Shown here in pieces: positions 12,929 to 54,450 of a stretch of DNA of 64,000 bases. The position numbers and the translations under genes are program-made. This DNA is from Escherichia coli (GTDB lineage Bacteria; Pseudomonadota; Gammaproteobacteria; Enterobacterales; Enterobacteriaceae). The stretch lies in the NCBI RefSeq assembly GCF_003334785.1, contig NZ_QOWV01000015.1. One strand, 5' to 3'. The notes below the pieces were generated by a model. The model was not told where the DNA came from and did not search any database. It saw nothing but the letters and a program-made list of their open reading frames with translations. Positions within the stretch are counted from its first letter, which is position 1, and each line of letters opens with the position of its first letter.

Positions 12929-13429
12929 AACCTGTTCCTTATTCTGTGAACTTCAGGTGACATTAAAGCTTTACTCCTAATGGAGAAACGACGCAATCCC
13001 AACTCGGTCAAACAGGTAAATATTAGTCTGATTATTAGTAAAGACAATTAATCAATCACTCCCGGTGATCATATAATTTCAAATGTAATTATAAGAAAAT
13101 AGTGTACTGATTCTCCGCATTAAACAGTGGTTAATATATGCAAAACATTTTATTAACATTAAGTTGATTGTTGCCTTTCTTTGTATTTAATTAGTTTGTT
13201 GTGCGGTAAGTGTCTGTTTAAAAATAGCTTATCTGGTATTGCATGAAAGTGATTATTTATAGCAGATGATTATTTACGGTGTGTTATTTTAACTGTGCGC
13301 AACATCCCATTTCGATTATTCCTGTTTCATTTTTGCTTGCTAGCGTAGCGAAAAACTTTTTAACAGATTGAAATACACCCAAAACAAAAGTATGGCTTAT
13401 GCATTTATGTTAAGTAATTGAGTGTTTTG

Positions 13430-13445: not shown

Positions 13446-13706
13446 TATTATTGAAAATCGCAGCCCCCCTCCGTTGTATGTGCGTGTAGTGACGAGTACA
13501 GTTGCGTCGATTTAGGAAAAATCTTAGATAAGTGTAAAGACCCCCTTCTATTTGTAAGGACTTATTAAACCAAAAAGGTGGCTCTGCTTATTGCAGCTTA
13601 TCGCAACTATTCTAATGCTAATTATTTTTTGCCGGGGCTTCCCGGCGACATCACGGGGTGCGGTGAAACCGCATAAAAATAAAGTTGGTTATTCTGGGTG
13701 GGAATC

Positions 13707-14057
13707 ATGCATACCTCCGAGTTGCTGAAACACATTTATGACATCAACTTGTCATATTTACTACTTGCACAGCGTTTGATTGTTCAGGACAAAGCGTCCG
13801 CTATGTTTCGTCTCGGCATAAATGAAGAAATGGCGACAACGTTAGCGGCACTGACTCTTCCGCAAATGGTTAAGCTGGCAGAAACCAATCAACTGGTTTG
13901 TCACTTTCGTTTTGACAGCCACCAGACGATTACTCAGTTGACGCAAGATTCCCGCGTTGACGATCTCCAGCAAATTCATACCGGCATCATGCTCTCAACA
14001 CGCTTGCTGAATGATGTTAATCAGCCTGAAGAAGCGCTGCGCAAGAAAAGGGCCTGA
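13707..14057 (+). CDS. flhD: Flagellar master regulator subunit FlhD
   Basis: [24 protein letters not shown]... (116 aa); an in-frame GTG at 13698 would add 3 residues. Confidence 0.96.
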
Positions 14058-14059
14058 TC

Positions 14060-14638
14060 ATGAGTGAAAAAAGCATTGTTCAGGAAGCACGGGATATTCA
14101 GCTGGCAATGGAATTGATCACCCTGGGCGCTCGTTTGCAGATGCTGGAAAGCGAAACACAGTTAAGTCGCGGACGCCTGATAAAACTTTATAAAGAACTG
14201 CGCGGAAGCCCACCGCCGAAAGGCATGCTGCCATTCTCAACCGACTGGTTTATGACCTGGGAACAAAACGTTCATGCTTCGATGTTCTGTAATGCATGGC
14301 AGTTTTTACTGAAAACCGGTTTGTGTGATGGCGTCGATGCGGTGATCAAAGCCTACCGTTTATACCTTGAACAGTGCCCACAAGCAGAAGAAGGACCACT
14401 GCTGGCATTAACCCGTGCCTGGACATTGGTGCGGTTTGTTGAAAGTGGATTACTGCAACTTTCCAGCTGCAACTGCTGCGGCGGCAATTTTATTACCCAC
14501 GCTCACCAGCCTGTTGGCAGCTTTGCCTGCAGCTTATGTCAACCGCCATCCCGGGCAGTAAAAAGACGTAAACTTTCCCAGAATCCTGCCGATATTATCC
14601 CACAACTGCTGGATGAACAGAGAGTACAGGCTGTTTAA
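14060..14638 (+). CDS. flhC: Flagellar master regulator subunit FlhC
   Basis: 192-aa ORF with the Cys cluster (CNCCGG...CSLC) typical of FlhC. Confidence 0.96.
14569..14595 (+). promoter_or_regulatory. Sigma-28 (FliA) class III promoter for motA operon / MotR leader
   Basis: TAAACTTT-N11-GCCGATAT closely matches the FliA consensus TAAAGTTT-N11-GCCGATAA; lies inside the flhC 3' end. Confidence 0.65.
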
Positions 14639-14662
14639 CTGATACGGTGTGGTGCAACATTC

Positions 14663-14697
14663 CAGCAGCGGTAACGACGTACCGCTGCTTTTTTTTG
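14663..14697 (+). terminator. Hairpin terminator after flhC, in the motA 5' leader
   Basis: cagcagcggtaacgacgtaccgctgc followed by a T8 run. Confidence 0.7.
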
Positions 14698-14764
14698 CCC
14701 CAATCGCGCGTTAACGCCTGACGACTGAACATCCTGTCATGGTCAACAGTGGAAGGATGATGTC

Positions 14765-15648
14765 GTGCTTATCTTATTAGGTTACCTGGTTGTTCTCGGT
14801 ACAGTTTTCGGCGGTTATTTGATGACCGGTGGAAGCCTTGGAGCACTCTATCAACCCGCTGAACTGGTGATTATTGCCGGTGCAGGGATTGGGTCGTTTA
14901 TCGTCGGCAATAATGGCAAAGCGATTAAAGGCACGCTGAAGGCGCTGCCGTTGCTGTTTCGTCGCTCCAAATACACCAAAGCAATGTATATGGATCTGCT
15001 GGCTCTGCTTTATCGGTTGATGGCGAAATCGCGGCAGATGGGGATGTTTTCGCTGGAACGTGATATTGAAAATCCCCGTGAGAGCGAGATCTTCGCCAGC
15101 TACCCACGCATTCTCGCGGATAGCGTCATGCTTGATTTTATCGTCGATTATCTGCGCCTGATTATCAGCGGTCACATGAACACCTTCGAAATCGAAGCCC
15201 TGATGGATGAAGAGATTGAGACGCACGCAAGCGAGGCAGAAGTCCCGGCGAACAGTCTGGCGCTGGTCGGGGACTCACTTCCGGCGTTTGGTATTGTCGC
15301 GGCTGTAATGGGGGTCGTTCACGCGTTAGGTTCAGCCGATCGTCCTGCCGCCGAGCTGGGGGCGCTTATCGCACATGCGATGGTGGGGACTTTCCTCGGC
15401 ATTTTATTGGCTTACGGATTTATTTCCCCATTAGCGAGTGTTTTACGTCAGAAAAGCGCCGAAACCAGCAAAATGATGCAGTGCGTCAAAGTCACTCTGC
15501 TTTCTAATCTGAACGGTTACGCACCGCCTATCGCCGTTGAGTTTGGTCGCAAAACGCTCTATTCCAGCGAACGTCCGTCGTTTATTGAACTGGAAGAGCA
15601 TGTGCGTGCGGTGAAAAATCCGCAACAACAGACGACAACCGAGGAAGC

Positions 15649-15652
<4 letters not shown>
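14765..15652 (+). CDS. motA: Flagellar motor stator protein MotA
   Basis: GTG start; [20 protein letters not shown]... 295 aa. Confidence 0.96.
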
Positions 15653-18564: not shown

Positions 18565-19068
18565 ATGACCGGTATGACGAATGTAACAAAGCTGGCCAGC
18601 GAGCCGTCAGGCCAGGAATTTCTGGTATTTACCCTTGGTGATGAAGAGTACGGTATTGATATCCTGAAAGTGCAGGAGATCCGTGGCTACGATCAGGTAA
18701 CACGGATTGCGAACACGCCAGCGTTTATCAAAGGCGTCACGAATCTGCGCGGCGTTATTGTGCCGATTGTTGACTTACGAATTAAGTTCAGCCAGGTGGA
18801 TGTGGACTATAACGACAACACGGTAGTTATCGTCCTGAATCTCGGACAGCGGGTGGTCGGCATCGTGGTTGACGGCGTCTCAGACGTGCTTTCATTGACG
18901 GCGGAGCAAATTCGTCCGGCACCGGAATTTGCCGTGACGCTTTCAACAGAATATCTCACTGGACTGGGCGCACTGGGCGACCGGATGTTGATTCTGGTGA
19001 ACATCGAAAAACTGCTGAACAGCGAAGAGATGGCGCTGTTAGATAGCGCGGCGTCAGAAGTGGCGTAA
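18565..19068 (+). CDS. cheW: Chemotaxis coupling protein CheW
   Basis: 167-aa ORF recognised as CheW. Confidence 0.96.
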
Positions 19069-19095
19069 TTCTCCCGATTTCCTCAATTGAAATGA

Positions 19096-19125
19096 ACCCG
19101 ATGATCTGCGCATCGGGTTTTTTAT
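19096..19125 (+). terminator. Rho-independent terminator after cheW
   Basis: Hairpin cccgatg-atctgcg-catcggg followed by a T-run. Confidence 0.7.
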
Positions 19126-19154
19126 TTCAATTTCGCGGCGGGTGGCATCAGCAA

Positions 19155-19181
19155 TAAAGTTTCCCCCCTTCTTGCCGATAA
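19155..19181 (+). promoter_or_regulatory. Sigma-28 (FliA) promoter of the tar-tap-cheRBYZ operon
   Basis: TAAAGTTT-N11-GCCGATAA, an exact consensus match, 32 bp upstream of the tar start. Confidence 0.85.
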
Positions 19182-19212
19182 CGAGATCAACTTGTTTTCA
19201 GGAAGGTGCCTT

Positions 19213-20874
19213 ATGATTAACCGTATCCGCGTAGTCACGCTGTTGGTAATGGTGCTGGGGGTATTCGCACTGTTACAGCTTATTTCCGGCAGTCTGTTTT
19301 TTTCTTCCCTTCACCATAGCCAGAAGAGTTTTGTGGTTTCCAATCAATTACGGGAACAGCAGGGCGAGCTGACGTCAACCTGGGATTTAATGCTGCAAAC
19401 GCGCATTAACCTGAGTCGTTCAGCGGTGCGGATGATGATGGATTCCTCCAATCAACAAAGTAACGCCAAAGTTGAATTGCTCGATAGCGCCAGGAAAACA
19501 TTGGCGCAGGCAGCGACGCATTATAAAAAATTCAAAAGAATGGCACCGTTACCTGAAATGGTCGCTACCAGTCGTAATATTGATGAAAAATATAAAAACT
19601 ATTACACAGCGTTAACTGAACTGATTGATTATCTAGATTATGGCAATACTGGAGCTTATTTCGCTCAGCCAACCCAGGGAATGCAAAATGCAATGGGCGA
19701 AGCGTTTGCTCAGTACGCCCTCAGCAGTGAAAAACTGTATCGCGATATCGTCACTGACAACGCAGATGATTACCGATTTGCCCAGTGGCAACTGGCGGTT
19801 ATCGCGCTGGTGGTGGTATTGATTCTGCTGGTGGCGTGGTACGGCATTCGCCGTATGTTGCTTACTCCGCTGGCAAAAATTATTGCTCACATTCGCGAAA
19901 TCGCCGGTGGTAACCTGGCGAATACCCTGACCATTGACGGGCGCAGTGAAATGGGCGACCTGGCGCAGAGCGTTTCACATATGCAACGCTCTTTGACTGA
20001 CACCGTCACTCATGTCCGCGAAGGTTCAGATGCCATCTATGCCGGTACCCGTGAAATTGCGGCGGGCAACACCGATCTTTCCTCCCGTACTGAACAGCAG
20101 GCATCCGCGCTGGAAGAAACTGCCGCCAGCATGGAGCAGCTCACCGCGACAGTGAAGCAAAACGCCGATAACGCCCGCCAGGCCTCGCAACTGGCTCAAA
20201 GTGCCTCCGACACCGCCCAGCACGGCGGCAAAGTGGTGGATGGCGTAGTGAAAACGATGCATGAGATCGCCGATAGTTCGAAGAAAATTGCCGACATTAT
20301 CAGCGTTATCGACGGTATTGCCTTCCAGACTAATATCCTCGCGCTGAATGCCGCGGTTGAAGCCGCGCGTGCGGGTGAACAGGGCCGTGGTTTTGCCGTG
20401 GTGGCGGGTGAAGTGCGTAATCTTGCCAGTCGCAGCGCCCAGGCGGCAAAAGAGATCAAAGCCCTCATTGAAGACTCCGTCGCACGCGTTGATACCGGTT
20501 CGGTGCTGGTCGAAAGCGCCGGGGAAACAATGAACAATATCGTCAATGCTGTCACTCGCGTGACTGACATTATGGGCGAGATTGCATCGGCATCGGATGA
20601 ACAGAGCCGTGGCATCGATCAAGTCGCATTGGCGGTTTCGGAAATGGATCGCGTCACGCAACAGAACGCATCGCTGGTGCAGGAATCAGCTGCCGCCGCC
20701 GCTGCGCTGGAAGAACAGGCGAGTCGTTTAACGCAAGCGGTTTCCGCGTTCCGTCTGGCAGCCAGCCCACTCACCAATAAACCGCAAACACCATCCCGTC
20801 CTGCCAGTGAGCAACCACCGGCACAGCCACGACTGCGAATTGCTGAACAAGATCCAAACTGGGAAACATTTTGA
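19213..20874 (+). CDS. tar: Methyl-accepting chemotaxis protein II Tar (aspartate/maltose)
   Basis: [22 protein letters not shown]... 553 aa, HAMP and MCP signalling domains, C-terminal NWETF pentapeptide. Confidence 0.96.
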
Positions 20875-32629: not shown

Positions 32630-33385
<756 letters not shown>

Positions 33386-33772
33386 TTTTTACCGTTGCAT
33401 CATGTCGCCCAATATGATGCTTGCTCGTACCAGGCCCCTGCAATTTCAACAGGGGCCTTTTTTTATCCCTGAGCAGTATAAAAAACGAACGATAACCGTG
33501 ATCTGTTGAGCGGGTGACAGTGCGCATAGCGTTGTGCTAAAAATATTTTTTATATTCACATTGATTATGGGATTTAAATTGCTAAAACTGATAAATATAT
33601 ATTCTAAATAGCAACTGGGTTATTCCTTAGCAATTAATGATTACATTGTAATAAATCATATTCTTTATCGATTATTTCAGGCAGTGTTGTGCCGAGTTAT
33701 GCAAGCGGTTAATTCGTTGTGTATTTAATTATACAATGATTTCGGTGTTCTGGAATTTATTTAGAGGAATCT

Positions 33773-37375: not shown

Positions 37376-37482
37376 GCTGCCTGATGCGCTATGCTTATCA
37401 GGCCTACATAGTCCCTGCAATATATTGAATTAGCAAGGTTTTGTAGGCCGGATAAGGCGTTCACGCCGCATCCGGCAGTAAT
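37376..37482. repeat. REP/BIME elements downstream of torZ
   Basis: gcctgatgcgctatgcttatcaggcctaca and gtaggccggataaggcgttcacgccgcatccggca are canonical REP palindromes. Confidence 0.7.
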
Positions 37483-47561: not shown

Positions 47562-47885
47562 CGGATTGGTCGCTCGCACCGCATCCGAAATTGGCAGTGT
47601 GCCTGATGCGACGCTATTCGCGTCTTATCCGGCCTACCAGAGATAGCGAACCGTAGCTCGGATAAGGCGCTCGCGACGCATCCGACATTGGCAGTGTGCC
47701 TGATGCGACGCTATTCGCGTCTTATCCGGCCTACGAGAGATAGCGAACCGTAGGTCAGATAAGGCGCTCGCACCGCATCCGACATTGGCAGTGTGCCTGA
47801 TGCGACGCTGTTCGCGTCTTATCAGGCCAGCCAGAGATAGCGAACCGTAGGTCGGATAAGGCGCTCGCGCCGCATCCGACAAATG
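47562..47885. repeat. BIME/REP cluster (about three tandem ~100-bp units)
   Basis: Repeated units of cgcatccgacattggcagtgtgcctgatgcgacgct(a/g)ttcgcgtcttatc(c/a)ggcc...agagatagcgaaccgtagg with small variations. Confidence 0.85.
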
Positions 47886-53007: not shown

Positions 53008-54450
53008 TTACTCTACCGTTAAAATACGCGTGGTATTAGTAGAACCCACGGTACTCATCACGTCGCCCTGGGTGACAATCACCAGGTCACCAGACATCAA
53101 GTAACCTTTATCGCGCAGCAGATTAACCGCTTCGCTGGCAGCTGCTACGCCGTCATTAGCGCTATCAAAGTGCACCGGCGTAACGCCACGATAGAGAGCA
53201 GTCAGGTTCAGCGTACGTTCATGGCGCGACATGGCGAAAATTGGCAGACCAGAGCTGATACGGGAGGTCATCAGCGCGGTACGACCCGATTCGGTCATGG
53301 TGATGATCGCCGTAACGCCTTTCAGGTGGTTAGCTGCGTACATTGCTGACATGGCAATAGCTTCTTCCACATTGTCGAACTGAACGTCCAGACGGTGTTT
53401 AGAAACGTTGATGCTCGGGATTTTTTCCGCACCCAGGCAAACGCGCGCCATGGCTGCAACGGTTTCTGACGGATACTGCCCAGCGGCAGTTTCTGCAGAC
53501 AGCATCACAGCGTCAGTACCATCCAGAACGGCGTTTGCTACGTCCATGACTTCTGCACGCGTCGGCATCGGGTTAGTAATCATTGACTCCATCATCTGGG
53601 TCGCCGTGATTACCGCTCGGTTTAGCTGACGCGCACGACGGATCAACGCTTTCTGAATGCCGACCAGTTCCGGGTCGCCAATTTCCACACCGAGGTCGCC
53701 ACGTGCAACCATTACCACGTCAGAGGCGAGGATGATGTCATCCATTGCATCCTGGCTGCAAACGGCTTCCGCACGTTCAACCTTGGCAACAATTTTCGCA
53801 TCACATCCTGCATCGCGTGCCAGGCGACGGGCATAGTTCAGATCTTCGCCACAGCGTGGGAAGGAGACAGCCAGGTAATCTACGCCAATCAACGCCGCAG
53901 TCTTAATGTCTGCTTTGTCTTTTTCGGTCAGCGCTTCAGCCGACAAACCGCCGCCAAGTTTGTTGATACCTTTATTGTTGGAGAGGGGACCACCGACGGT
54001 GACTTCGGTGAACACTTTCATGCCCTGAACTTCCAGTACTTTTAACTGGACGCGACCATCGTCCAGCAGCAGGATGTCACCAGGCACGACGTCAGCAGGC
54101 AGGCCTTTGTAGTCGATACCGACTTTTTCTTTGTCGCCTTCACCTTTACCCAGGTTGGCGTCGAGCAGGAATTTATCCCCAATATTGAGGAAAACTTTGC
54201 CTTCTTTAAAGGTGGATACACGGATTTTGGGCCCCTGGAGGTCACCCAGAATAGCCACATGACGCCCCAGTTTTGCGGCAATCTCACGAACTTTATCCGC
54301 GCGCATTTTGTGATCTTCAGGCGAGCCGTGAGAAAAGTTCATACGTACAACGTTGGCACCCGCCGCGATAACTTTTTCAAGATTATTATCGCGATCTGTT
54401 GCTGGGCCTAACGTGGTAACGATTTTTGTTCTGCGAAGCCTTCTGGACAT
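53008..54450 (-). CDS. pykA: Pyruvate kinase II PykA
   Basis: [19 protein letters not shown]... 480 aa from the internal ATG of a 527-aa ORF. Confidence 0.96.

Follow-up and report, generated by a model that had tools for sequence, protein, structure and literature searches.

The DNA that joins flhC to motA raises the question of what it encodes besides the end of one protein and the leader of the next. A sigma-28 motif lies within the last codons of flhC and a terminator lies ahead of motA; between them they could delimit a small RNA and also control an operon. We analysed this region in a 64-kb window (the whole stretch of Escherichia coli DNA under study, 64,000 nucleotides). There is very little doubt that the locus is E. 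coli motR, with a sigma-28 promoter that yields either the sRNA MotR or the motAB-cheAW mRNA. The gene has been described before: RefSeq annotates it, it has been characterised experimentally in K-12, and the conservation of its promoter has been published. The K-12 literature supplies the dependence on FliA, the start of transcription, the ~95-nt product, the binding to Hfq and the targets; what is established here are the sequence elements, the identity to the K-12 locus and the conservation. The coordinates of the features are collected in Table 1.

Table 1. Features of the flhC-motA region in window coordinates.
Feature	Position	Strand	Remarks
flhC CDS	14060-14638	+	192 codons; from the open reading frame list; stop TAA 14636-14638
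sigma-28 (FliA) -35 element TAAACTTT	14569-14576	+	inside the flhC open reading frame
sigma-28 -10 element GCCGATAT	14588-14595	+	overlaps FlhC codons Ala177-Asp178
motR, 95-nt sRNA MotR and motAB-cheAW 5' leader	14602-14696	+	corresponds to b4828
5' box CUGCUGGA, MotR nt 5-12	14606-14613	+	candidate anti-terminator 5' strand
Published seed region, MotR nt 40-54	14641-14655	+	M1 mutation at 14647-14649
UCCAGCAG, MotR nt 60-67	14661-14668	+	exact reverse complement of the 5' box
Intrinsic terminator	14664-14696	+	10-bp hairpin 14664-14689, T-tract 14690-14696
Rest of motA 5' UTR	14697-14764	+	Shine-Dalgarno AAGGA 14753-14757
motA	14765-15652	+	GTG start, 295 aa; first gene of motAB-cheAW

The promoter is located exactly to the base where the first-pass annotation of this DNA had placed it (TAAACTTT-N11-GCCGATAT at 14569-14595, within flhC). 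The 11-nt spacer reads CCCAGAATCCT, and the site has two mismatches to the sigma-28 consensus TAAAGTTT-N11-GCCGATAA. Six nucleotides separate GCCGATAT from A+1 (14602), which is the spacing expected for a sigma-28 promoter, and the last 70 nt of flhC carry the promoter together with MotR's first 37 nt. Over 28 nt the site is identical to the published FliA ChIP-seq motif for (flhC)motAB-cheAW, TAAACTTTCCCAGAATCCTGCCGATATT (Fitzgerald et al. 2014, PMC4183435). The table in that paper gives paired motA expression values of 302 and 1 at the FliA site, which we read as wild type versus fliA deletion. The motR promoter has been described as lying within the flhC CDS and doubling as the motAB-cheAW promoter (Melamed et al. 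2023, PMC10578931).

The terminator was claimed at 14663-14697 and is present there, with each end off by no more than 1 nt. The hairpin, AGCAGCGGTA-ACGACG-TACCGCTGCT, has 10 pairs, 6 of them G-C, around a 6-nt loop and is followed by 7 T, a U-tailed 3' end of the Hfq type; it sits at the 3' end of the predicted fold of 14602-14697 (-29.3 kcal/mol, z = -2.2). It begins 26 nt past the flhC stop, so flhDC transcripts should end at the same terminator too. The motA start was also called correctly, with a GTG at 14765 and an AAGGA Shine-Dalgarno sequence upstream. The final ~45 nt of the motA 5' UTR do not change between E. coli and E. albertii.

The span from A14602 to T14696 is 95 nt, in agreement with the ~95-nt transcript that the first-pass annotation had proposed and tentatively called MotR-like. 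In the MG1655 RefSeq record the ncRNA motR (b4828, 'small RNA MotR') occupies 1977208..1977302 on the minus strand, is likewise 95 nt long and overlaps the 3' end of flhC, the same layout as in the window. The suggested comparison with the published MotR coordinates puts b4828 on 14602-14696 with 93/95 positions identical. Between a point upstream of the -35 element and the motA start, 231 nt in all, the window and MG1655 differ only at 14650 and 14653; the promoter, the terminator and the remaining leader are 100% identical. The +1 cloning primer SM001 (Melamed et al. 2023) matches window 14602-14627 exactly, and the MotR-M1 gBlock equals 14529-14764 once the engineered GTG>CAC (14647-14649) and the two positions of allelic difference are set aside. 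A 501-nt segment around the site matches 5,377 of 5,426 complete E. coli genomes, in which the genes are annotated as flhC and motA. The MotR span opens within the 3' end of flhC, shares its strand and stops in the flhC-motA intergenic region.

These features fit what is published for the RNA: MotR derives from the motA 5' UTR, a ~95-nt MotR band co-immunoprecipitates with Hfq, and the longer bands are read-through at MotR's terminator to give the operon mRNA (PMC10578931), as the first-pass annotation had supposed for motAB-cheAW. No MotR family was found in Rfam 15 by a gathering-threshold scan of the whole window or by a permissive scan of 14500-14800, where hits below threshold, to miRNA and snoRNA models, are due to chance. 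The miss reflects an absent model and is no evidence against membership in MotR. The locus shares its position, promoter, +1, 95-nt length, terminator and leader with MotR of E. coli K-12 (Melamed et al. 2023, eLife 12:RP87151), but the seed of the window differs at nt 49 (A>U) and nt 52 (C>U). A reading of the raw sequence alone had recovered a dual-function locus made up of an intragenic promoter, an sRNA and an operon leader. Nothing in the sequence is at odds with motR.

The proposed working of the locus is simple. RNA polymerase carrying sigma-28 (FliA) would initiate at A14602 from the promoter within the last flhC codons. Transcripts that stop at 14690-14696, the end of the terminator (14664-14696), would become the 95-nt Hfq-binding sRNA MotR, and those passing it would become motAB-cheAW mRNA. 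In K-12 the sRNA pairs inside the rpsJ and fliC coding sequences through nt ~40-54 and flagella number rises (PMC10578931). Through MotR, transcription of the late (class 3) flagellar genes is tied to ribosomal protein S10 and to the synthesis of flagellin.

The conservation of the locus was followed in 80 Enterobacterales flhC loci from one-genome-per-species collections. The loci were retrieved by FlhC protein, so the sample is unselected for the promoter. The motif TAAACTT[TA]-N11-GCCGATAN is present in 79 of the 80, and in each of the 78 loci that allowed measurement it lies 67 nt ahead of the flhC stop. It fails in one Enterobacter cloacae strain, where a 1-nt deletion in the spacer also shifts the flhC frame. 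Neither the -35 TAAACTT nor the -10 GCCGATA varies in 47 genera. A MotR-type terminator (GCAGCG-loop-CGCTG-T run) occurs in 70/70 evaluable loci of Enterobacteriaceae and Erwiniaceae, recognised in four of the loci by direct folding and not by the scan (loop of at most 8 nt, no bulge), and the predicted RNA is 88-96 nt long in 69 of those 70. Nine loci of Pectobacterium, Brenneria and Serratia keep the promoter, lack the MotR-type terminator and have longer, different leaders. Across the alignment of 47 genera, 97.6% of the terminator's cells are paired, and its three apical pairs show compensatory changes, with a covariation score attained by none of 500 shuffles.

The constraint on this region extends to the silent positions of flhC. 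Of 154 degenerate codons compared among 70 distinct flhC genes, only 13 are frozen to one codon, and 12 of these 13 fall in codons 167-172 (the -35 element and just upstream), 177-178 (the -10 element) and 182-187 (MotR nt 2-19); the -35 codons 170-172 are frozen at synonymous sites. MotR nt 2-22 form the window of lowest synonymous entropy in flhC (0.018 vs a gene mean of 1.20). The sequence ACAACUGCUGGAUGAACAG is practically invariant in the 47-genus alignment, the invariant stretch being 14602-14620, and conservation within MotR peaks at the 5' end, not at the published seed. The intragenic FliA promoter of motAB-cheAW has been described as a coding/promoter 'duon' (Fitzgerald et al. 2017, bioRxiv 10.1101/188474). 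The 28-nt motif is identical to the one published (PMC4183435; bioRxiv 10.1101/188474), and the constraint on Ala177-Asp178 is reproduced here by codons. The present analysis goes beyond it in that the frozen stretch runs on into the transcribed region, FlhC codons 182-187 (QLLDEQ), which the accessible text of that work does not mention.

The two substitutions that separate the window from K-12 are both located in the seed, which reads GGUGUGGUGC in the window vs GGUGAGGCGC in K-12 (14650 A>T and 14653 C>T relative to K-12). The MotR-like assignment made from the raw sequence stands, but that reading had missed that the window carries a rare allele with two seed substitutions. With 46-nt megablast queries able to match their own allele alone, the window allele is found in 54 and the K-12 allele in 2,981 of 5,426 complete E. 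coli genomes; about 2,300 genomes carry neither. Strains NCTC86 and VR50 have the window allele and match the window at 100% identity over 14400-14900. Among the sampled seeds, O157:H7 has GGUGUGGCGC, the B2 strains and the divergent E. coli SCPM-O-B-8794 (its own species representative) have GGUGUGGCGA, and E. albertii has GGUGUGGCUA; GUGUGG is found in most other aligned Enterobacteriaceae. Since O157:H7, B2, E. albertii and the other Enterobacteriaceae have these seeds, U at nt 49 is ancestral. Judged from the nine sampled sequences, the A49 by which the rpsJ duplex becomes complete in K-12 is a derived base, to which the window allele contributes a further change, C52>U, on the U49 background. 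The perfect seed match to rpsJ thus belongs to a derived allele carried by ~55% of complete E. coli genomes, and other lineages, the window included, have a U at nt 49 that gives a mismatch in the rpsJ duplex.

The MotR-rpsJ duplex is predicted at rpsJ +141..+154 with -22.4 kcal/mol for K-12. At the same rpsJ site the window allele gives -16.8 kcal/mol, with one mismatch and one G-U pair, and is 5.6 kcal/mol weaker; the rpsJ of the source strain lies outside the 64-kb window. We infer that the rare window allele acts like the K-12 RNA; because its predicted rpsJ duplex is weaker, its target regulation may be quantitatively different from that in K-12. In the 47-genus alignment few parts of MotR are conserved as poorly as the published seed, and given this poor conservation between genera the K-12 target set may not be general.

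Two other explanations of the region would take away its promoter or its sRNA. That the sigma-28 motif is a chance match in coding sequence and no promoter is hardly conceivable. Weak sigma-factor motifs are generally frequent inside genes and nothing further speaks for this explanation, whereas the 64-kb window holds 3 sigma-28 matches with at most 3 mismatches against 0.59 expected from shuffles, a number attained in 2 of 100 shuffles. The two best of them, the flhC site and one of perfect consensus (19155-19181, upstream of tar), are both known class 3 promoters. The flhC motif is also the same sequence as the FliA ChIP-seq site, with fliA-dependent expression downstream (PMC4183435), and its retention in 79/80 loci, at a fixed offset where measured and with frozen synonymous sites, would not be expected of a coincidence. 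It is improbable, if less strikingly so, that the terminated RNA is a mere by-product of a motA promoter placed upstream of the flhDC terminator and has no trans-acting sRNA function in this strain. The conserved elements would then serve motA transcription and flhDC termination alone. The variation of the published seed (nt 44-54) among genera and even within E. coli, the weaker predicted rpsJ pairing of the window allele, and the promoter without terminator in lineages beyond Enterobacteriaceae and Erwiniaceae are all consistent with a by-product. However, in K-12 the RNA binds Hfq and yields RIL-seq chimeras, and a chromosomal seed mutation alters flagella number and reporter activity (PMC10578931). 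The terminator is also kept at a fixed distance from the start, giving the 88-96 nt RNA in 69/70 loci, and GGUGUGG is common to most aligned Enterobacteriaceae.

Small RNAs derived from 5' UTRs can arise by premature intrinsic termination, and leaders that switch between a terminator and an anti-terminator include the trp and pyrBI attenuators. The motR leader may possibly also be an intrinsic attenuator of this kind, a reading that supplements MotR and is no replacement for it. In this reading, nt 5-12 would pair with nt 60-67 and occupy the 5' arm of the terminator, of which UCCAGCAG covers the first 5 nt. The 3' arm would then have to oust the 5'-box helix before polymerase quits the U-tract, which would result in less termination, and the helix would fix how much MotR is made relative to motAB-cheAW mRNA or make this proportion open to regulation. 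On flhDC transcripts ribosomes translate the 5' box (FlhC codons 183-185), so that, more speculatively, translation could make the terminator tighter for flhDC than for sigma-28 transcripts.

The pairing has several properties suggestive of such a role. The 8-bp complement is perfect; among 5,000 dinucleotide shuffles, only 0.9% produce one of at least 8 bp that overlaps the terminator arm. While the nascent RNA is 65 to 82 nt long, its minimum-energy fold contains this helix, and the terminator prevails only with the 3' arm complete (-29.3 vs -25.2 kcal/mol). The pairing is present in the nascent minimum-energy fold of 47/47 genera, with 8 pairs in 44 and 6-7 in the remaining 3, and persists though the intervening sequence varies. 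The 5' box CUGCUGGA is invariant in the 47 genera and lies in the stretch of lowest synonymous entropy in flhC (nt 2-22), and the UCC of nt 60-67, which the terminator stem does not include but directly adjoins, is nearly invariant. The published variant MotR*, 'a more abundant derivative identified by chance' (nt 6-8 TGC>GAG; PMC10578931), removes the helix in silico, and the terminator then forms unopposed. However, the greater abundance of MotR* is equally explicable by RNA stability. Covariation carries no information here, all 8 pairs being essentially invariant, and the terminator is thermodynamically favoured by ~4 kcal/mol. In most Pectobacterium, Brenneria and Serratia loci (including Serratia silvae) the 5' box is just as frozen and there is no MotR-type terminator, so some further constraint must act on the box. 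An RNAduplex search for a partner of the 5' box in the leaders of these three genera returned inconsistent sites that differ from genus to genus, so these lineages speak neither for the anti-terminator nor against it.

The candidate resembles the trp and pyrBI attenuators and the 5'-UTR-derived sRNAs in that one promoter gives a short RNA or the full mRNA and an alternative helix competes for the 5' arm. Unlike those attenuators, the motR leader has no leader peptide and no known ligand, and the candidate helix is weaker than the terminator, has no covariation support and has its upstream strand within the coding sequence of the preceding gene. It is therefore a tentative proposal, more doubtful than not, that the invariant first 19 nt of MotR are frozen by more than FlhC coding and the promoter and that nt 5-12 act as a co-transcriptional anti-terminator. 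If true, it would explain why MotR* is more abundant, why the lower terminator stem does not vary and why QLLDEQ is conserved in the disordered FlhC C-terminus. The pairing of the 5' end with the terminator offers a simple, testable hypothesis for read-through into motAB-cheAW. An RNA-intrinsic anti-terminator or a BoxA is not mentioned in PMC10578931, and full-text literature searches on related terms returned no other paper on the motR leader.

Read-through could also be governed by a BoxA-like NusB/S10 site, GCUGUUUAACU (nt 29-39), that recruits the Nus complex. S10/NusB-promoted read-through of the motR terminator was a speculation by the authors of PMC10578931, and the stretch is well conserved and matches 9/11 positions of the published consensus GYTCTTTAANA. 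However, GCTGTTTAACT has a G at position 4, where the C is critical, and a T at position 11. In published BoxA work a C4T/T6C double mutation in the suhB BoxA abolished SuhB association, and a cryptic hisG BoxA that is off at the critical position was unbound; motA and flhC are absent from the published BoxA paper. The conservation of nt 29-39 is confounded by coding, as they encode the FlhC C-terminus and stop codon, and Erwiniaceae read GCCGUUUAA, a poorer match. The stretch was dropped as a good candidate on account of the mismatch at position 4 and the coding overlap; from its sequence it is unlikely to be functional, and control of read-through by a BoxA is highly improbable.

Three minor features of the window may be added. 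The third sigma-28-like match (54173-54199, minus strand) lies within a pykA-like ORF, has GGGGATAA as its -10 element and is probably a chance match. A 45-aa minus-strand ORF at 14595-14732 runs antisense over the terminator and leader and was dismissed, as it has no support. The 5' box (CUGGAUGA) and the motA Shine-Dalgarno sequence (AAGGAUGA) both contain putative CsrA-like GGA motifs.

The MotR sRNA varies within E. coli in its seed (nt 40-54, the published pairing region for rpsJ), at window positions 14650 and 14653. The seed allele of the window, GGUGUGGUGC, is found in 54 of 5,426 E. coli genomes, and the allele of the K-12 reference strain MG1655, GGUGAGGCGC, in 2,981 of the same 5,426. 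Still other alleles occur in O157:H7 and B2 strains. At MotR nt 49 the derived state is the A49 of K-12, which completes the rpsJ duplex. The MotR terminator also differs in two B2 strains, UM146 (locus L089) and APEC O1 (L090). In both, TTTCTTTT replaces the unbroken T-tract aligned to window 14690-14696, and the loop is changed too. These differences might alter the efficiency of MotR termination.

The sigma-28 promoter of motR lies inside flhC, and the synonymous sites of FlhC codons 167-168 (GTA AAA; 14558-14563), immediately 5' of its -35 element, are frozen in 70 of 70 flhC genes. These codons may represent an extension of the promoter on its upstream side. The flhC-motA locus of Enterobacter cloacae DSM 26481 (L069:2010-2045) has lost 1 nt from the promoter spacer, giving N10 versus N11. 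The same deletion frameshifts the 3' end of flhC, and the tblastn match stops at residue 173; the locus is a candidate for a natural loss in which the C-terminus of FlhC disappeared together with the motA promoter. In Serratia, Pectobacterium and Brenneria (L072-L079, L081), the sigma-28 promoter inside flhC is retained, as is, in most of these loci, the frozen 5' box (MotR nt 5-12). The leader between flhC and motA is longer in these loci (133-218 nt), has a different structure and lacks a MotR-type terminator; in Pectobacteriaceae a conserved long hairpin takes its place.

The motif scan of the window returned two further matches to the sigma-28 consensus (table). The perfect one is positioned downstream of cheW (18565-19068) and upstream of the tar ORF (19192-20874); it is the known tar-tap-cheRBYZ promoter, which differs from that of K-12 by one base in the spacer. 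An Rfam match to C0465 overlaps this promoter on the other strand. The other site is in sense orientation within a pykA-like ORF and is probably a chance match because its -10 lacks the GCCG core.

Sigma-28 matches and other small RNAs in the window
Feature	Position	Strand	Basis
tar promoter, perfect consensus, TAAAGTTT-N11-GCCGATAA	19155-19181	+	Motif scan
Sigma-28-like site, 3 mismatches, CAAAGTTT-N11-GGGGATAA	54173-54199	-	Motif scan
C0465 sRNA	19088-19165	-	Rfam
MicL	33157-33464	+	Rfam
naRNA4	47753-47828	+	Rfam
ES036	37400-37442	-	Rfam
Equivalent position of K-12 AsflhD, antisense to flhD 5' end	about 13509-13728	-	Comparison with K-12

MicL (370 bits), naRNA4 and ES036 all exceed their Rfam gathering thresholds and are already known small RNAs. 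Upstream of flhD, MG1655 carries an IS1H insertion, whereas the window has none there. The flanks of the K-12 IS1H meet at window 13402-13409 and share an 8-nt overlap, which is consistent with a target-site duplication.
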